Origin: a virus
Lineage: Duplodnaviria > Heunggongvirae > Uroviricota > Caudoviricetes
IMG/VR virus record: IMGVR_UViG_2585427777_000025
Direction: 5' to 3' (one strand)
DNA length: 10,970 nucleotides
Shown: one piece after another, positions 1 to 10,970 of the stretch
How the letters are laid out: each line of letters begins with the position of its first letter
How positions within the stretch are numbered: position 1 is the first letter of the stretch
Position numbers and translations under genes: made by a program
The notes under the pieces: model-generated
Told to the model about the DNA's origin: nothing
Seen by the model: only the letters and a program-made list of their open reading frames with translations
Databases searched by the model: none

Positions 1-1284
1 TTACAGACTTCTGGAAGGTTGCGCAGCTCTTACAACACGCGGTTGATCTTCCGCAGCGTCTTCCAGCGCACTTAAATCACGGTCTTTCACCTCTGGCATT
101 TTCAGCGCAGAGATTAAACCAATCACTGAATATGCCATGATCATAATGGCGATCGGATACCAGGATTCCGTCATGGTGCAGAAAATCCCCGCCAGGATAG
201 GACCAAAACCGGAAGCGATAAGACCACCAATTTCTTTAGAAATAGCCATCCGGGTAAAGCGGTTTTTACAGCCGAACATTTCTGCCATGGTAATGTTTTC
301 CAGAGCAAATAATCCCAGCACCGCACAGTTATGAATCACAATCAGTGCAACCATAATGGTGCTCGGGGCATAGCTTTTATCTACAATGATAGAAAGCATT
401 GGCCATGCCAGCACAATCGCGGAGGTATTCATAATAATATACGGGATCCGGCGACCAATTTTATCGGATAACCAACCAAGGAACGGAATGGTCATAAAGC
501 CGAGAATCGAACTGATCATCAATGCATCTGTTGGAATTGCTTTGTTAAACAATAACGTCTGCACTAAATAGCCTGCAAGGAAAGTCTGAATTAACCCGGA
601 GTTACCCGCCTGACCAAAACGCAGCCCTGTTGCCAGCCAGAAGGATTTGCTCTGGAACATGCTACCAGCAGGTGCAGGTTTTGCTGTCGGTTGGTTACTG
701 TCGTTAACCTTCTCAAAGACCGGGCTTTCTTTCAGATTCATACGCAACCAGATAGCAAAGACCATCACGACAACACTCGCCAGGAACGGTATACGCCATC
801 CCCACGCCAGCAGTTCCTCTTTACTGAGAATGAAGAACATAAAGGCCCAGATTGCCGTTGCGCTCAAGGTTCCGCAGTTAGTTCCCATAGCCACAAATGA
901 GGAGATAATTCCGCGCTTACCTTTTGGCGCATATTCCGCCAGCATCGTACCGGCACCGGAAATTTCCGCACCTGCACCCAACCCCTGAATAATACGCAAC
1001 GTCACCAGCAAGATGGGTGCAAAAACACCAATCTGTGCATAGGTCGGTAACACACCAATTAAGGTGGTACAGTTCCCCATCATGGTGATGGTAATAAAGA
1101 GCACTTTTTTACGCCCTATTCTGTCGCCCATTTTGCCGAAAATAAATGCTCCGACAATACGCGCCACATAACCTGCACCGTAGGTTCCCATTGCCAGAAT
1201 TAACGCCATTGCCGTTGATGATTCAGGAAAAAATATTTCATGAAACACTAACGCTGCGCCGAGCGAATATAACTGGAAATCCAT
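1..1284 (-). CDS. ydfJ: MFS-family metabolite:H+ symporter (ProP/KgtP-like), N-terminally truncated at the prophage junction
   Basis: 427-aa ORF in the track with multiple hydrophobic segments and the MFS loop motif GKMGDRIGRKK. By my recalled alignment to ProP it lacks about 28-35 N-terminal residues. An in-frame TGA sits two codons upstream of the ATG (plus 1288-1290), so the frame cannot extend. No obvious Shine-Dalgarno sequence. Stop codon is at 1-3. Confidence 0.85.
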   Translation of the reverse strand: MDFQLYSLGAALVFHEIFFPESSTAMALILAMGTYGAGYVARIVGAFIFGKMGDRIGRKKVLFITITMMGNCTTLIGVLPTYAQIGVFAPILLVTLRIIQGLGAGAEISGAGTMLAEYAPKGKRGIISSFVAMGTNCGTLSATAIWAFMFFILSKEELLAWGWRIPFLASVVVMVFAIWLRMNLKESPVFEKVNDSNQPTAKPAPAGSMFQSKSFWLATGLRFGQAGNSGLIQTFLAGYLVQTLLFNKAIPTDALMISSILGFMTIPFLGWLSDKIGRRIPYIIMNTSAIVLAWPMLSIIVDKSYAPSTIMVALIVIHNCAVLGLFALENITMAEMFGCKNRFTRMAISKEIGGLIASGFGPILAGIFCTMTESWYPIAIMIMAYSVIGLISALKMPEVKDRDLSALEDAAEDQPRVVRAAQPSRSL

Positions 1285-1888
1285 AATTCACAGGTGTTTT
1301 TTCCCATCCTGTGGTTTCCTTAGCGTTTTCTAGGTTTTTTCAGATAGTTGCATTTTTTTAAAAAGCATCCTAAGTTCGATCTCAGTGTCTATCTGGGGCC
1401 TATTTCTGTCCCATATATGCCCCAAAAAAACTCCCCAACAGATAAGTAGTTTTTTCATGGATTTATGCGTAAAATCAAGAACGGCTGGAAATCATTCAAT
1501 ACTCACACTATCGAAAAATTTACCAGCCAATCGCAGCACGTTCTTGCATAAGGCGTGTCTGCGGTTTTTCAACTATTCAGATACATCACTCCCATCACAT
1601 TCATTCCTCCGCATCAAAGGCATATAGGCTATATCACCTTGATATTTTTCTTTTTCAGATAAAAACTGTTATCTATGTATACTTTTAAACCCAATCCGTG
1701 TAGAGTCTCTGCATAAGATAGTTTGCAGTTGCCGCTTCAGCTTGCGCCATAAACCGCCTGATTTTTGCTGCCACCTGTTAGCATTCCTGTATACCTGAAA
1801 CGACAATGTTTATCTACGAACTTTAAGAACACCCAAGATAAAAATTGTCAACTATATCATATATAACACATTACTAATTCGAGGCTAT

Positions 1889-2002
1889 ATGAACAGCATA
1901 CTGATAATCACATCTCTCCTTATCATATTCAGCATTTTTAGTCATGCCCTAATAAAATTAGGGATTGGCATATCCAATAACCCAGACAAAACCGATGTAT
2001 AA
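1889..2002 (+). CDS. hypothetical small hydrophobic protein (37 aa, single predicted transmembrane helix)
   Basis: ATG at 1889 preceded by GAGG 4 nt upstream; my translation is [37 protein letters not shown], ending at TAA 2000-2002. Lies 68 bp upstream of the ydfK-like gene on the same strand. Below the size cutoff of the ORF track; no homology evidence. Confidence 0.25.
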
Positions 2003-2070
2003 GTCAACATATCCTGAATCAGACATACAATATCGCAATGAAAATCAATAATATTTTAAGGAATATCTTC

Positions 2071-2304
2071 ATGAAATCAAAAGACACCCTAAAGTGGTTC
2101 CCTGCGCAGCTTCCTGAAGTAAGAATTATCCTAGGGGATGCTGTAGTGGAAGTAGCAAAACAGGGAAGACCTATCAATACCAGAACATTGCTTGATTACA
2201 TTGAAGGAAACATAAAGAAAAAATCATGGCTGGATAACAAAGAATTATTACAAACAGCGATATCAGTTCTTAAAGACAACCAAAATTTAAATGGTAAAAT
2301 GTAA
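2071..2304 (+). CDS. ydfK: YdfK/YnaE-family small prophage protein (cold-shock-inducible family)
   Basis: 77 codons from the ATG at 2071, which has AAGGA 8 nt upstream; the track ORF 2038-2304 starts at an upstream ATG with no RBS. Sequence MKSKDTLKWFPAQLPEVRIILGD... matches my memory of YdfK/YnaE, which sit next to pin at the ends of Qin and Rac. Confidence 0.8.
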   Translation: MKSKDTLKWFPAQLPEVRIILGDAVVEVAKQGRPINTRTLLDYIEGNIKKKSWLDNKELLQTAISVLKDNQNLNGKM

Positions 2305-2620
2305 TATAATAAACTTACTTTTTTATCATTTTTCCACTTTAACAACATTTTGCTCCACTTTTCCACGACCAAACAACTTGAAATCTGGTTAAAATAACAC
2401 GCAACACTATTCTTCTTCCTTGAGTCCGCCCGGAACTCGAAAAACAAACCGAGTTAAAGCCATTTTTCACAAAATCGATTTTGGGTCTCACCAAAATTAC
2501 GGGGTTGCATACGCATTCGTTTATTTTCGAACGTGTACATACAAATATGCACAAAAATAATCATAATTATTTTCTGAGATGCATTATGATATGAACACCA
2601 ATTTCGTATAGAGTCTCACT

Positions 2621-3211
2621 ATGTCTCAAATTTTTGCTTACTGTCGGATATCAACGCTGGATCAGACCACCGAAAATCAACGCCGGGAAATCGAAAGTGC
2701 AGGTTTTAAAATCAAACCTCAGCAAATAATCGAAGAACACATTAGCGGCTCAGCAGCAACCAGTGAGCGTCCTGGTTTTAACCGGTTGCTTGCTCGCCTG
2801 AAATGTGGTGATCAATTGATTGTGACAAAACTGGATCGCCTTGGTTGTAATGCAATGGATATCAGGAAAACAGTGGAACAACTGACCGAAACAGGTATCA
2901 GAGTACATTGCTTAGCATTGGGGGGCATTGACCTGACCAGTCCAACAGGAAAAATGATGATGCAAGTAATTTCAGCAGTCGCTGAATTTGAACGAGACCT
3001 TTTACTTGAACGCACTCATTCCGGGATAGTAAGAGCCCGCGGCGCAGGGAAACGTTTTGGTCGACCACCTGTGTTAAATGAAGAACAGAAACAGGCGGTA
3101 TTCGAACGAATTAAGTCAGGTGTAAGTATAAGTGCCATTGCCCGGGAATTCAAAACCTCGCGGCAAACCATTTTAAGAGCCAAAGCAAAACTTCAGACAC
3201 CTGACATATAA
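2621..3211 (+). CDS. pinQ: serine recombinase (resolvase/invertase family), PinQ/PinR-like
   Basis: 196-aa ORF with the N-terminal catalytic motif Y-C-R-I-S-T-L-D-Q (serine recombinase Y-x-R-x-S-T-x-x-Q), the conserved [12 protein letters not shown] segment and a C-terminal helix-turn-helix region ([19 protein letters not shown]). Motifs look intact. Confidence 0.85.
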
Positions 3212-3308
3212 AAAATAATCTCGGTGTGAGATGCTTTACGTCTTCCAAGCCCCCTTCCTTGCCGTAAATGGAAAGATACATCTAATTATAGAATTTATAT
3301 GTTTTACC

Positions 3309-3884
3309 CTACGGCAGTGCTGGCCATTCAATATCCTGTGCAGTTGACGTATCAACACGGTTCAGCAATACCCGATACTTTTTCCATGCTTCCAGCAACG
3401 AGATTTCTTCCTCCGTTGCAATTTCCAGATCTGCAGCATCCTGAAGCGGCGCAATATGCTCACTGGCTACCTGCATCAGGTTGTTTTTTGTTTCTTCCGC
3501 CTCCCGGATCCGGAACAGTTTTTCTGCTTCCGTATCCTTCACCCAGGCTGTGCCGTTCCACTTCTGAAACTCCCCTTCCGGCGATAACCAGGTAACATTT
3601 TCCGGTAACGGACCGAGTTCAGAAATAAATAACGCGTCGCCGGAAGCCACGTCATAAACCGTTTTACCCCGATGATCTTCAACGAGATGCCACGATGACT
3701 CATCACTGTTGAAAACAGCCACGAAGCCAGCCGGAATATCTGGCGGTGCAATATCGGTACTGTTTGCTGGCAGACCTGTATGAGGCGGAATATATGCATC
3801 ACCTTCACCAATAAATTCATTAGTTCCGGCCAGCAGATTATAAATTTTTATGGTCCGTGGTTGTTCACTCATTCTGAATGCCAT
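3309..3884 (-). CDS. tfaQ: tail fibre assembly protein (lambda Tfa-like)
   Basis: 191-aa ORF beginning [24 protein letters not shown]..., collinear with lambda Tfa as I recall it. Its ATG (3882-3884) overlaps the stf stop (3884-3886) as TAATG, suggesting translational coupling. Confidence 0.85.
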
Positions 3885-4846
3885 TATGCAAGCCTCACAA
3901 TATAGTTAAATGCGATGTTTTTGACGGTGTTTTCCGCGTTACCAGCAGCGTTAACGGTGATGGTGTGTCCATGTGAACCAATCGCAACGGAGTGCGTATG
4001 AGCACCAATACCGACAGTATGTGCATGTGCGCCTGCGCTTGCAGCAGTGCCGGACAGCGAGTGGGTATGAGCACCATCTGATGATGTCTTCCCTGCATTA
4101 CGAGTCTGGCCACTACCGCTTGTTGTGCTCATAATCCCCGCGCTTAGATTTGAAATCGCGGTATAACCATTAGGGAAAATGCTCGTGTTCGTGCCACCAA
4201 ATGCACCGGAACTCTTGTGTTGGTGCGCACCGGCACTATTTGCGGTCCCGCTAATACTATGGGTATGCGCCCCGGTGTTATTCGTGGATTTGGTTCCGTA
4301 ATCAAACGACGATGTGGTTTTCGTCCCCAAATCCGTACTGGATGCGCTGGCGCTGTGGGTGTGCGATTTAATGCCGTCCTGTTCCTGAGATAATACGGCC
4401 CGACCACTGGCGGGCTTGCCCTTAATCGTCCAGCCACGCATATCAGGGATCACGCCTGACGGATAAGCAACTGCAAGTTTCGGGTATGCAGATTTGTCAA
4501 AAGTCTGCCCCTGCATCAGGGCATAACCAGACGGAACGGTATCTGATGGCCACGGGATTGGTGCACCGACTGGATAAAACTCTGCAGGAGGATGAGCCGA
4601 GGTGTAAAGCTGCGCCCACGGCGACCAGTTTGCGTCGGTCGTATCCCGTCGTGAACGAATAAATGCCGGAGCATGAGCACCGCTTGTACCACTCCAGCCG
4701 ATGAGTAACTCACCTTCGCCAACGGCTGTCATCCCTTTCAGGTGAATGATATTTCCATACGCTGTTGGATATCCGTTGTTATACACCTCGTATAACTCAA
4801 GACCTGCTGCCCCCTGCGTATTGTCTGTCAGCGCGGTTAACCTCAC
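3884..4846 (-). CDS. stfQ: side tail fibre protein, C-terminal (distal) fragment; 5'-truncated remnant
   Basis: Open frame 3884-4855 in the track (323 aa, TTG start). A GTG at 4844-4846 would give 320 aa. Both candidate starts lie inside sequence derived from capsid gene E; the stf-derived sequence begins around 4837 ([12 protein letters not shown]...). The C-terminal half is rich in GAHTHS / AGAHAH repeats typical of tail-fibre tips. No shaft or baseplate-attachment domain is present. Confidence 0.7.
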
Positions 4847-5024
4847 CGGAAACAATCGGCGAAACGTACAGCGCCATGTTTACCAGTCCCGGAATTTGTG
4901 AGAGATAGACTTTCTCCGTGGTGAAGGGATAGCTCTCACGGAAAAAGAGACGCAGAAACAGCGGATCAAACTTAAATTTCTGCTCATTTGCCGCCAGCAG
5001 TTGGGCGGTTGTGTACATCGACAT
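4838..5024 (-). pseudogene. E: major capsid protein E, N-terminal 62-codon remnant
   Basis: Track ORF 4797-5024 begins MSMYTTAQLLAANEQKFKFDPLFLRLFFRESYPF...VSPIVSGEV, matching the lambda gpE N-terminus as I recall it, then diverges after codon 62 into 13 out-of-frame codons and a stop. Lies about 56 bp downstream of D, as in lambda. Confidence 0.8.
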
Positions 5025-5038
5025 AAAAAAATCCCGTA

Positions 5039-5060
5039 AAAAAAAGCCGCACAGGCGGCC
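5039..5060 (-). terminator. candidate stem-loop with U-tract between D and E (weak intrinsic terminator or mRNA processing/stability element)
   Basis: On the minus strand just after the D stop: GCCGC-CTGT-GCGGC (5-bp GC stem, 4-nt loop; plus 5046-5059) followed by T7. The stem is short, so termination is likely partial at most. Coordinates may be off by 1. Confidence 0.3.
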
Positions 5061-5080
5061 TTTAGTGATGAAGGGTAAAG

Positions 5081-5413
5081 TTAAACGATGCTGATTGCCG
5101 TTCCGGCAAACGCGGTCCGTTTTTTCGTCTCGTCGCTGGCAGCCTCCGGCCAGAGCACATCCTCATAACGGAACGTGCCGGACTTGTAGAACGTCAGCGT
5201 GGTGCTGGTCTGGTCAGCAGCAACCGCAAGAATGCCAACGGCAGCACCGTCGGTGGTGCCATCCCACGCAACCAGCTTACGGCTGGAGGTGTCCAGCATC
5301 AGCGGGGTCATTGCAGGCGCTTTCGCACTCAATCCGCCGGGCGCGGTTGCGGTATGAGCCGGGTCACTGTTGCCCAGCGGCTGGTAATGGGTAAAGGTTT
5401 CTTTGCTCGTCAT
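5081..5413 (-). CDS. D: head decoration protein (lambda gpD-like)
   Basis: 110 codons from the second ATG ([27 protein letters not shown]...), matching lambda gpD length and sequence from memory; the track ORF starts two codons earlier (MFM...). Begins 9 nt after the C stop. Confidence 0.9.
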
Positions 5414-5422
5414 AAACATCCC

Positions 5423-6028
5423 TTACACTGGTGTGTTCAGCAAATCGTTAACGGCATCAGATGCCGGGTTACCTGCAGCCAGCGGTGCCGGTGCCCCCTG
5501 CATCAGACGATCCAGCGCAGTGTCACTGCGCGCCTGTGCACTCTGTGGTGCTGCGGCCAGAATGCGGCGGGCCGTTTCCACGGTCATACCGGGGGTTTCT
5601 GCCAGCACGCGTGCCTGTTCTTCGCGTCCGTGAGCCTCCTCACAGTTGAGGATCCCCATAATGCGGCTGTTTTCTGCCGCAACCGCTGCGGTGATCTGCG
5701 CGTTCACGTCCGGCTGCGCCGCGCTGGCGTTTTCGCCCTCCGTCGCTGGCACCACGTCAGTAACGTCAGCCTGCGAAGCAGTGGCTGAAACAGTTGTTGA
5801 TTGAGTCTCTTTGGTCATTCGCCCTCCTGAGAGACGGGATTTACGTGCATCCAGTGCATCACGCATGACGGTGATCGCATCGGTGCTGTTAACAAGTTCA
5901 TCAGCCAGTCCGGCATCAATGGCCTCCTGACCGCTGTACACTGCAGCCTCGGTATCCAGCACAGCCTGCACGGACAGGCCGGTATATGCCGACACCTTCT
6001 GCGCAAACATCTGGCGGGTTGCGTCCAT
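5423..6028 (-). CDS. nu3: scaffolding protein Nu3-like, in-frame internal start within C
   Basis: In-frame ATG at 6026-6028 (MDATRQMFAQKVSAYTG...) gives 201 aa sharing the C stop, the nested arrangement known for lambda C/Nu3. No strong Shine-Dalgarno seen; assigned by position and length. Confidence 0.55.
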   Translation of the reverse strand: MDATRQMFAQKVSAYTGLSVQAVLDTEAAVYSGQEAIDAGLADELVNSTDAITVMRDALDARKSRLSGGRMTKETQSTTVSATASQADVTDVVPATEGENASAAQPDVNAQITAAVAAENSRIMGILNCEEAHGREEQARVLAETPGMTVETARRILAAAPQSAQARSDTALDRLMQGAPAPLAAGNPASDAVNDLLNTPV

Positions 6029-6722
6029 CCGGGACTGCAGTGTCTCCCGGACGTCATCCGGAAGATGGCTGTAGGGGTTGCCATCCACCTTATGGCTGCC
6101 GCTGTAAATCAGAGTGATTTCCACACCCTGTTTCTCCAGCGCAGCACCGTAATTACTGTGAGCCATCATGACGCCGATGGAGCCTGTCCGGGCGGTCTGC
6201 GTGACCAGACGCCGGGAGGCGGCACTGGCAAGCAGCTGACCTGCACTGCAGTTCATGTCGTTGGCCAGCGCCCATACCGGTTTTATGTCACGCACACGGG
6301 CGATGATGTCAGCGCAGTCAAATGCCCCCGCCACCATCCCGCCGGGCGTGTCCATATCGAGCAGAATGCCGTCCACCATCGGATCGCTGGCAGCCTGTTG
6401 CAGACGGGCGATAATGCCGTTGTAACCGGTCATCCCCGAGTACGGCTGCAGCGCCCGCGTCCGGCTGACCAGCGTGCCGGACACCGGCAGCACGGCGATG
6501 CCGTTCATGACCTGATAACTGCGGGCCTGTCGTGGTCCGTCATCATCACCGGATAATGCCAGCGTCGCGAGTGCCTCCTGGGCAGTCAGGCTGTCGCCGG
6601 ACACCGCATCCATCAGGCGGCTGATCCCAAGCTGGCCTGCAAGCGCACAAAAGAAAACCCGCGCATAGGCGGGTTCAAGCATCAGCGGCTCATTAAAAGC
6701 CATGCTGGCAATATGCGGGAGA

Positions 6723-6742
<20 letters not shown>
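5423..6742 (-). CDS. C: prohead protease / minor capsid protein (lambda gpC-like, ClpP/S49-like fold)
   Basis: 439 codons from a GTG at 6740-6742 (VTAELRNLPHIASMAFNEPLML...), preceded by GAGGAGGAGAAGA; the track ORF extends further upstream in frame through the overlap with B. The start overlaps the end of B by 20 nt. Confidence 0.9.
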
Positions 6743-10424
<3,682 letters not shown>

Positions 10425-10450
<26 letters not shown>

Positions 10451-10970
10451 TCAGCAACCCCGGTATCAGTTCATCCAGCGCGGCTGCTTTGTTCATGGCT
10501 TTGATGATATCCCGTTTCAGGAAATCAACATGTCGGTTTTCCAGTTCCGGAAAACGCCGCTGCACCGACAGGGGGATCCCGTCGAGAATACTGGCAATTT
10601 CACCTGCGATCCGCGACAGCACGAAAGTACAGAATGCGGTTTCCACCACTTCAGCGGAGTCTCTGGCATTTTTCAGCTCCTGTGCGTCGGCCTGCGCACG
10701 CGTAAGTCGATGGCGTTCGTACTCAATAGTCCCTGGCTGGAGATCTGTCTCGCTGGCCTGCCGCAGTTCTTCAACTTCCCGGCGCAGCTTTTCGTTCTCA
10801 ATTTCAGCATCCCTTTCGGCATACCATCTTATAACGGCGGCAGAGTCATAAAGCACCTCATTACCCTTGCCACCGCCTCGCAGAACGGGCATTCCCTGTT
10901 CCTGCCAGTTCTGAATGGTACGGATACTCGCACCGAAAATGTCAGCCAGCTGCTTTTTGTTGACTTCCAT
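10425..10970 (-). CDS. nu1: terminase small subunit (lambda Nu1-like)
   Basis: 181-aa ORF MEVNKKQLADIFGASIRTIQNWQEQGMPVLRGGGKGNEVLYDS..., with the N-terminal winged-HTH DNA-binding region. The start codon is the last 3 nt of the window, so cos and any upstream sequence lie outside it. Confidence 0.9.

Follow-up and report, generated by a model that had tools for sequence, protein, structure and literature searches.

How did a host transporter gene come to begin at the very edge of phage DNA, and is the open reading frame left there still a working gene? The question is raised by the left end of the window, the whole 10,970-nucleotide stretch of viral DNA analysed here, where the initial annotation had proposed a prophage integrated into the 5' end of an MFS transporter gene. 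Comparison of attL, attB and attP, together with the K-12 gene ynfP, upholds that proposal: the junction is almost certainly the attL site of a Qin-type (mEp460-like) lambdoid prophage in ydfJ, generated by tyrosine-integrase site-specific recombination. The feature is an ordinary one and is already known, as Ramisetty and Sudhakari 2019 (PMC6379469) reported the insertion of Qin into the 5' end of ydfJ, with loss of the promoter and 28 codons. The elements around the junction are:

1 to 1284, minus strand: residual ydfJ ORF, codons 29-455 plus stop, 427 aa, an MFS transporter of the MHS (metabolite:H+ symporter) family
1273 to 1290: extended imperfect att site, CTGGAAATCCATAATTCA
1276 to 1286: att core, GAAATCCATAA, 11 bp, the only sequence common to attL, attR, attB and attP
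1288 to 1290, minus strand: in-frame TGA, phage-derived, two codons upstream of the ATG
1287 to 2070: phage arm of attP, AT-rich and with little coding sequence, joined directly to the int-side arm in free phages

Read on the minus strand, window positions 1-1284 are E. coli ydfJ without its first 28 codons, and the ATG at 1284-1282 corresponds to Met29 of the intact 455-aa protein; the closest genome match covers 96% of the window. The last host base is 1286, where identity to the empty site stops; the sequence from 1287 on belongs to an mEp460/Qin-type lambdoid phage and forms the right arm of its attP. AT-rich, unrelated sequence had been noted beyond 1284. The loss of identity and the GC content (0.38-0.39 over 1201-1650 and 0.32-0.36 over 1800-2400, against 0.43-0.51 inside ydfJ) confirm this change, while the true boundary, 1286/1287, lies two bases further, and host-like sequence does not continue past it.

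The core had been expected within a few tens of bp of 1285, and at 1276-1286 it includes this very position. On the gene strand it reads TTATGGATTTC, spanning codons F28 (in part), M29, D30 and F31; the ATG at 1282-1284 falls inside it. Up to window position 1286, attL is identical to attB, and attR matches attB from the core on; 11 bp are all that they share. Homology to the free phage begins at 1273, and over the extended imperfect site attB is CTGGAAATCCATAAATTCA (19 bp) and attP is CTTGAAATCCATAATTCA (18 bp). By our mapping, the extended site at 1273-1290 is probably the '18- or 19-bp att' published for the PPydfJ prophages (PMC8112680, S7 Fig legend). Rfam and tRNA scans revealed no RNA gene at the junction, and no IS was found there.

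In complete E. coli genomes both states of the locus are common. A short probe for the attL junction matched 3,186 of 5,426 genomes (~59%), and this recurrence of an identical junction shows that it is not a chance feature. The empty attB site was detected with a 120-bp probe in 2,012 of the 5,426 (~37%), where rspB is closely followed by an intact 455-aa ydfJ, and a synthetic empty site composed of the left host arm, the core and the right host arm was contiguous at 99.9% identity in ~2,007 genomes. In strain M217, for example, an intact 455-aa ydfJ lies 57 bp downstream of rspB. The uninterrupted orthologue of prophage-free strains thus starts 28 codons upstream of the window ATG.

As the window ends inside the prophage, before its own attR, int and xis, attR was read in the K-12, E. 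ruysiae, Shigella and other E. coli loci. The missing 5' fragment of the gene, which was predicted to lie at the other prophage end, is present there in all of them. In K-12 it forms, at the int end of Qin, the 36-aa ORF ynfP, encoding MTIEKHERSTKDLVKAAVSGWLGTALEFMDF followed by KSHAC, and the order int, core, ydfJ 5' fragment, rspB recurs in E. ruysiae, Shigella and other E. coli. YnfP has been detected in K-12 (PMC6001520). The Qin prophage of K-12 is annotated at 1632277..1652745, with one end at the first base of the core and the other just before the second core copy, and its intQ is a pseudogene.

Free phages supply the other partner of the recombination. A synthetic attP was found contiguous, with 98.2-99.5% identity and 100% coverage, in phages PhiR42_1, mEp460_ev081, HannyBb and Tritos, whose gene order is exo-xis-int-attP-ydfK-pin-tfa-stf. 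Their integrase has Arm-DNA-bind_2 and Phage_integrase domains and their xis is a DUF1233 protein. The integrases of Hafnia and Rahnella (55% identical) were also considered as users of the ydfJ site; neither adjoins ydfJ or rspB, which points to another site.

The arrangement arises as follows. In the phage, attP lies between int and the ydfK-like gene, and its recombination with attB at ydfJ codons 27-31 (E-F-M-D-F) splits ydfJ. The first 84 nt of the gene remain with the upstream rspA-rspB at the int end and yield the 36-aa ynfP, and the other 1,284 nt end up on the ydfK/pinQ side. The ATG that opens the 3' piece is an accident, since the Met29 codon falls within the core. The insertion may further put a distance of ~20 kb or more between ydfJ'-ydfI and the rspAB promoter region.

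The remainder of the window holds the phage genes behind this arm:

1889 to 2002, plus strand: ynfT, small ORF of 37 aa, reported to be detected by epitope tagging in K-12
2071 to 2304, plus strand: ydfK, 77 aa, cold shock protein by K-12 annotation, pointing away from ydfJ
2621 to 3211, plus strand: pinQ serine recombinase with Resolvase and HTH_7 domains
3309 to 3884, minus strand: tfaQ tail fibre assembly protein
3884 to 4855, minus strand: C-terminal remnant of the side tail fibre gene (stf)
4797 to 5024, minus strand: surviving 5' part of the major capsid gene (~61 native codons), joined to the stf remnant
5081 to 8527, minus strand: lambda-like head genes, comprising the following four
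5081 to 5419, minus strand: decoration protein
from 5423, minus strand: S49 protease/scaffold
6723 to 8324, minus strand: portal
8321 to 8527, minus strand: head-tail joining protein W
8524 to 10450, minus strand: terminase large subunit gene, frameshifted
10425 to 10970, minus strand: nohA, Nu1-type small terminase subunit, 181 aa

Two lesions mark this prophage as defective. In the terminase gene, a T-run near 9011 is longer by a single T, which gives 1927 nt compared with 1926 nt in strain 19KM2326N, and the capsid-stf fusion was made by deletion of the remaining capsid, head-completion and tail genes. An inverted-repeat search for pinQ gave no convincing invertible segment.

How much of the transporter is lost was judged from family profiles and sequence conservation. 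Orthologues from E. coli, Citrobacter, Enterobacter, Lelliottia and Pantoea are 455-458 aa long and start 28 residues earlier than the window ORF, which itself begins at position 40 of the ProP model and position 37 of ShiA. A deficit of 28-35 residues relative to ProP-type homologues had been estimated, and the exact number is 28. Sixteen of these 28 residues are invariant across genera (D12-F28, all but position 15), and the homology to ShiA and ProP reaches residues 5-12 of full-length YdfJ. The TIGR00883 (MHS) profile starts at residue 23; of its 400 positions, 7-400 are retained in the residual ORF, which passes the curated cut-off of 443.45 bits with a score of 451.4, compared with 462.2 for the full-length protein. 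A hydropathy peak covers residues 24-46. Hence, the earlier view that most of the first transmembrane helix is retained holds for its hydrophobic core, while the conserved N-terminal part of the helix, with the sixteen invariant residues, is gone, and a complete N-terminal helix as in full-length MHS members is absent. A predicted structure of full-length YdfJ places helix 1 at residues 10-46 with low confidence (mean pLDDT 44); this model is poor, the retrievable homologues all being >80% identical, and only its helix boundaries were used, with caution. A sequence search of the PDB for a solved relative returned distant MFS matches alone (SV2A, PHT1), which aligned from residue 61 onward and are uninformative on the N-terminus.

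The phage arm does not make up for this loss. Translation of the minus strand across the junction gives ...KHL*IMDFQLYS..., with TGA followed by ATT and then ATG, so that the in-frame stop seen two codons upstream of the ATG is real (1290-1288), and the arm shows neither similarity to the lost 28 codons nor a substitute N-terminus. As it brings a stop codon and no replacement N-terminus, the insertion disrupts ydfJ rather than restoring the gene.

Is the residual ORF nevertheless used? It might be transcribed from the prophage, by a phage-end promoter or by read-through of the late operon, translated from Met29, and retain some transport activity. This would add to the integration model and not replace it. 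We consider such expression unlikely. At the protein level no decay is visible: in K-12, W5-6 and 19KM2326N, in which the site is occupied, the residual YdfJ is identical to the intact allele over residues 29-455, and the retained MHS positions and the score above the cut-off also count in favour of this reading. The window allele, however, differs from residues 29-455 of the intact M217 protein by the single exchange I99N, a private change at an otherwise invariant position, and the sixteen invariant residues of the N-terminal helix are lost. The databases are divided as well, since the residual ydfJ is labelled as a CDS in the K-12 reference (b1543), whereas RefSeq (PGAP) flags it in other strains as a pseudogene 'missing N-terminus'. 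In favour of expression, ydfJ is among the genes differentially expressed upon DicC induction, and the Keio ydfJ deletion strain has an azithromycin phenotype, although the latter could reflect a polar effect on ydfI.

Transcription could reach ydfJ from stf-tfa, which lie on the same strand, and a same-strand terminator-like site between them and ydfJ was not found. On the other hand, ynfT, ydfK and pinQ are all directed away from ydfJ, no minus-strand promoter-like site occurs within ~770 bp upstream, and promoter-like sites appear at chance frequency (7 found, 6.0 expected). Promoter and terminator scans over 1150-2700 and 2600-5200 gave counts equal to chance, which leaves a phage-end promoter unsupported, and showed no clear terminator. 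Initiation of translation poses a further obstacle. As the initial annotation had remarked, the ATG has no evident Shine-Dalgarno sequence: the 25 nt upstream are GGATGGGAAAAAACACCTGTGAATT, and the sole anti-Shine-Dalgarno pairing, GGAUGGGAA (-6.0 kcal/mol), begins 25 nt before the ATG, a distance that we judge too great for initiation. The native ydfJ start is weak as well. Most likely, the residual ORF is poorly expressed or not expressed at all and, if made, would give a crippled transporter.

A second reading, in which the 427-aa form starting at Met29 is a native isoform and nothing was truncated, could draw on several homologues of exactly this length (P0101, P0080, P0116, P0113 and P0022), of which P0101 occurs on 77 contigs. 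P0101, the only 427-aa entry examined, directly adjoins phage genes (tail, DinI, S24 peptidase) in both Enterobacter loci read, L005 and L006, where the match to the Enterobacter empty site breaks off at exactly the same position, so that this form is prophage-truncated and the reading is already refuted. In addition, full-length forms dominate, residues 12-28 are invariant apart from position 15, and the native start is translated in K-12, as the detection of YnfP indicates; we give a native short form virtually no credence. An origin of the junction by a non-site-specific event (IS rearrangement, illegitimate recombination or 5' deletion), as could be imagined for a prophage with deletions elsewhere and, in other strains, rearrangements by IS elements, is equally improbable and already refuted by the predicted attP, contiguous beside int and xis in four free phages, and runs against the same 11-bp core at both ends with perfectly complementary gene halves, the identical junction in thousands of genomes, and the lack of an IS or tRNA at the junction.

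Several related elements are known. The window shares with K-12 Qin the attL junction, the core and the gene order ydfJ'-ynfT-ydfK-pinQ-tfaQ-stf, with 99.8% identity over positions 1-4839 and 100% over 10442-10970. It differs in keeping ~5.6 kb of head and packaging genes (4840-10441), which are deleted in Qin, where stfQ is fused to nohA, and in having defects of its own, namely the terminase frameshift and the capsid-stf deletion. The PPydfJ prophages of STEC/EPEC occupy the same chromosomal locus (Nakamura et al. 2021, PMC8112680). In that study, ydfJ is treated as a standard prophage locus, and att was defined by aligning attP, attL, attR and attB, the latter from a strain with an unoccupied ydfJ. 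PPydfJ prophages bear T3SS effector loci and may occur as stacked clusters, whereas the part of the prophage within the window has no effector genes. The phages mEp460_ev081, PhiR42_1, HannyBb and Tritos have the contiguous attP (98-99.5%) between int and a ydfK-like gene, followed by pin-tfa-stf, but are complete phage genomes, whereas the window holds a degraded prophage. Rac at ttcA and e14 at icd, two further K-12 prophages, are likewise lambdoid elements that integrated within coding sequences by way of a short core (PMC6379469). According to the same paper, e14 leaves a duplicate of the icd 3' end, and Rac alters the N-terminus of TtcA while a protein remains; at ydfJ, in contrast, the phage arm provides a stop codon and no replacement, which results in a simple truncation.

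The same breakpoint occurs outside E. coli. In Enterobacter, ydfJ is interrupted at this nucleotide by prophages with other cargo (an S24/UmuD-like peptidase, DinI and a different tail gene), whose core-proximal phage arm is similar (CACCTtTaAATcATGG compared with CACCTgTgAATtATGG). A search of sequenced phages with the Enterobacter attL arm matched the UmuD-like gene and nothing else, and no integrase was traced. In active lysogeny of the Listeria comK type, the host gene is restored by precise, regulated excision, and no lysis follows. The packaging and morphogenesis defects of the prophage in the window speak neither for nor against excision. Codons 27-31 of ydfJ might be a cross-genus integration hotspot that, with precise excision, serves as a reversible on/off switch for a sugar-acid operon rspA-rspB-ydfJ-ydfI, an idea that we regard as highly speculative and improbable. 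We take rspAB to belong to a putative L-gulonate/mannonate pathway, following the enolase-superfamily literature, and Wichelecki et al. are said to have linked rspAB/ydfI to L-gulonate in 2014; this link was not recovered by our literature search. For YdfJ, a published table lists 'K+ *' as the substrate under TCDB 2.A.1.6.9, an entry whose basis our literature search did not find.

The importance of the junction is small beyond correct annotation. The 427-aa 'YdfJ' of K-12-like strains is a prophage-truncated form, the true product has 455 aa, and YnfP (36 aa) is its orphaned N-terminus. Transporter screens with K-12 ydfJ knockout or overexpression libraries use the truncated allele, and the probable separation of ydfJ'-ydfI from rspAB would be worth noting in functional studies of the cluster. 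Enterobacter database entries of 427 aa can stem from the same type of event, as found for P0101.

The window opens with the residual part of a transporter gene, delimited as follows:

1-1284, minus strand, residual ydfJ open reading frame (ORF) of 427 aa, ATG at 1284-1282
1290-1288, minus strand, in-frame TGA two codons before this ATG (frame ...KHL*IMDFQ)

In agreement with the initial annotation, the start codon follows an in-frame stop and has no usable Shine-Dalgarno sequence in the 25 nt upstream (GGATGGGAAAAAACACCTGTGAATT), the sole anti-SD pairing beginning 25 nt away. The encoded protein is an MHS-subfamily MFS transporter, matched by Pfam MFS_1 and Sugar_tr and scoring 451 bits with TIGR00883 (MHS), above the cut-off of 443. 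The DNA beyond the gene is AT-rich and unrelated, as had been described: GC content is 0.43-0.51 within ydfJ versus 0.38-0.39 over 1201-1650 and 0.32-0.36 over 1800-2400, and the match to the empty host site (attB) ends after 1286.

Positions 900-2700 are 99.9% identical to the matching region of thousands of E. coli chromosomes, with ydfJ, ynfT, ydfK and pinQ annotated there. In K-12 MG1655 the locus is the left end of the cryptic lambdoid prophage Qin (annotated at 1632277..1652745), which reads ydfJ (b1543, 427 aa), ynfT, ydfK, pinQ, tfaQ, stfQ and nohA; in other strains RefSeq (PGAP) labels the same ydfJ 'incomplete; missing N-terminus'. At the far end of K-12 Qin the intQ pseudogene, ynfP (a 36-aa ORF), rspB and rspA follow in turn, and the missing 5' gene fragment, expected at the opposite prophage end, is ynfP, beside intQ. 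At 23729-23839 of the MG1655 locus (L001), ynfP encodes 31 native YdfJ residues and five phage-encoded ones; the product reads MTIEKHERSTKDLVKAAVSGWLGTALEFMDF followed by KSHAC, and the window ORF opens with its final native residues, MDF. Detection of tagged YnfP in K-12 (PMC6001520) shows the native ydfJ start to be active there, and the prophage junction therefore makes a translated chimeric micro-ORF.

The sequence GAAATCCATAA is present at both K-12 Qin junctions and occurs only once in the window, at 1276-1286. This 11-bp core spans 1285, close to which the att core had been predicted. A synthetic empty site, in which the core joins the window host arm to the far-side host arm of K-12, was contiguous at 99.9% identity in ~2,007 of 5,426 complete E. 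coli genomes. The uninterrupted orthologue was compared in E. coli M217, whose empty site carries an annotated 455-aa 'MHS family MFS transporter YdfJ', with rspB 57 bp upstream and ydfI 88 bp downstream, one strand throughout. Base by base, the occupied end in the window (attL) equals attB through 1286 and the other end (attR) equals it from the core on, the 11-bp core being their sole overlap; the host sequence, whose continuation past 1285 would have moved the boundary, stops two bases beyond 1284. The residual ATG, located within the core, is the Met29 codon of intact ydfJ. The loss is exactly 28 codons, within the 28-35 residues estimated from homologues. With one mismatch and one indel allowed, the site extends to CTGGAAATCCATAA(A)TTCA (window 1273-1290), 19 bp long in attB and 18 bp in the free-phage site (attP), and presumably corresponds to the '18- or 19-bp att sequence' of prophages at ydfJ, published as PPydfJ (PMC8112680). 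An attL probe of 121 bp centred on the junction, counted when at least 80% covered, was found in 3,186 of 5,426 E. coli genomes (59%) and an attB probe in 2,012 (37%), together 96% of genomes.

The DNA beyond 1286 is phage. A predicted attP, in which the core links the int-side arm of K-12 to window 1287-1600, occurs in one piece (100% coverage, 98.2-99.5% identity) in four sequenced phages, PhiR42_1, mEp460_ev081, HannyBb and Tritos. In mEp460_ev081, whose homology to the window begins at 1273, the exonuclease, excisionase and integrase genes precede attP, and a ydfK-like gene, serine recombinase, tfa and stf come after it, as they do in the window from 1287 on; PhiR42_1 has this order too. 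The phage integrase is a lambda-type tyrosine recombinase with Arm-DNA-bind_2 and Phage_integrase domains, the excisionase a DUF1233 protein. In E. ruysiae, Shigella flexneri and further E. coli, integrase relatives precede this same core, after which come the ydfJ 5' fragment and rspB. A contig labelled as a Veillonella parvula MAG (L011, JAGZPX010000007.1) carries an E. coli-type integrase (100%), the att core, the ydfJ 5' fragment and rspB (100%); almost certainly this is E. coli DNA that contaminated the bin.

These arrangements show an insertion in which the attP between int and ydfK, sharing the 11-bp core with ydfJ codons 27-31, cuts ydfJ cleanly in two, the phage arm bringing a stop codon and no substitute N-terminus. 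The insertion would probably also part ydfJ' and ydfI from the upstream rspA-rspB and their promoter, which Ramisetty and Sudhakari call 'promoter loss' (PMC6379469). The finding is thus correct but already known: that paper describes how Qin, by integrating at the ydfJ 5' end, deprives the gene of its promoter and 28 codons, PMC8112680 names ydfJ among the standard prophage loci and defines its att, and the K-12 reference annotation sets the Qin boundaries at the core.

The initial annotation suggested that most of the first transmembrane helix is retained, which is only partly right. The hydropathy peak covers residues 24-46 of full-length YdfJ, and because the MHS profile starts at residue 23, the residual ORF keeps profile positions 7-400. 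The Pfam MFS_1 alignment begins at residue 21, alignments to the ShiA and ProP models reach back to residues 5 and 12, and a low-confidence predicted structure (pLDDT 44) places helix 1 at residues 10-46. Of the lost residues, 16 are invariant among orthologues. Hence, in our reading, the hydrophobic core of TM1 is largely kept, but the cytoplasmic N-terminus has been lost along with a conserved N-terminal stretch of the helix. The residual proteins of K-12 and of two other occupied strains, W5-6 and 19KM2326N, show no difference from the intact M217 allele over residues 29-455. Private to the window allele is the non-conservative change I99N (window 1073), at a position otherwise invariant across 16 orthologues, which may signal that decay is beginning in this lineage.

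Had full-length orthologues begun at the window's methionine, the gene would not be truncated. In Citrobacter, Enterobacter, Lelliottia and Pantoea the orthologues have 455-458 aa and an N-terminus in common, D12-F28 of YdfJ being invariant across these genera save position 15. Some Enterobacter entries have 427 aa, and the one examined, P0101, was rejected as a native short form: in both loci read (L005, L006) phage tail, DinI and S24-peptidase genes lie upstream, and identity with an Enterobacter empty site (L007, rspA-rspB-ydfJ-ydfI) sets in at TCATGGATTTCC, exactly where it does in E. coli. Hence P0101 is itself prophage-truncated; these prophages split ydfJ at Qin's nucleotide and leave the same 427-aa residual ORF. 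Their core-proximal phage arm resembles that of the window, and a search for a sequenced phage carrying it found none. The breakpoint shared by Enterobacter prophages of different cargo is a modest addition to the known facts, and the sole one. The comparison with L007 used 2861-3011 of each of these two metagenome contigs, whose prophages bear S24/UmuD-like, DinI and different tail genes. The order rspA-rspB-ydfJ-ydfI-ydfZ, with a GntR regulator nearby, is conserved in Enterobacter and supports a putative operon for sugar-acid catabolism; going by the enolase-superfamily literature, this operon may serve L-gulonate/mannonate metabolism.

Meaningful expression of the residual ORF appears unlikely, and the sequence gives no support for it. 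In a promoter scan, promoter-like sites near the ORF occurred at chance frequency, with none on the minus strand within ~770 bp, and the adjacent phage genes ynfT, ydfK and pinQ are all directed away from ydfJ. The sole possible same-strand transcription into ydfJ would be read-through from the late stf-tfa genes ~2 kb off; scans of the intervening DNA revealed no promoter, and no clear terminator either. Indirect hints of expression come from ydfJ being among the genes differentially expressed upon DicC induction, the azithromycin phenotype of the Keio ydfJ knockout, and the identical residual alleles.

The window prophage is related to K-12 Qin but less reduced. The two are alike over 1-4839 (99.8%) and 10442-10970 (100%), and the window additionally retains a 5.6-kb stretch of lambda-like genes for head and packaging functions that is deleted from K-12, where stfQ is fused to nohA:

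4840-10441, genes kept in the window: capsid remnant, decoration protein, S49 protease, portal, W, most of the large terminase

The window prophage is defective. The large terminase gene (8524-10450, minus strand) has one extra T in a T-run near 9011, giving 1927 nt versus 1926 nt in 19KM2326N and a frameshift into ORFs 8981-10450 and 8524-9183. The major capsid gene breaks off after ~61 native codons and is fused to the C-terminal part of stf (4797-5024, 3884-4855), so that the remaining capsid sequence is lost together with the head-completion and tail genes. Three further features of the window are:

1889-2002, plus strand, ynfT, small ORF of 37 aa, hydrophobic
2621-3211, plus strand, pinQ, serine invertase gene that looks intact
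3343-3541, minus strand, strong Rfam match to IS009 (RF02111; 220.9 bits, gathering score 117) within the tfaQ coding region

No convincing inverted repeats flank tfa/stf beside pinQ within 1200-5200, the best pair (2091-2110 and 3039-3058) being 80% complementary over 20 nt, and the PinQ invertase may have lost its invertible segment. A peptide identical to YnfT, YnaM, is sited between ynaE and ttcC (table in PMC6001520), and both were reportedly detected in K-12 by epitope tagging (PMC6001520).
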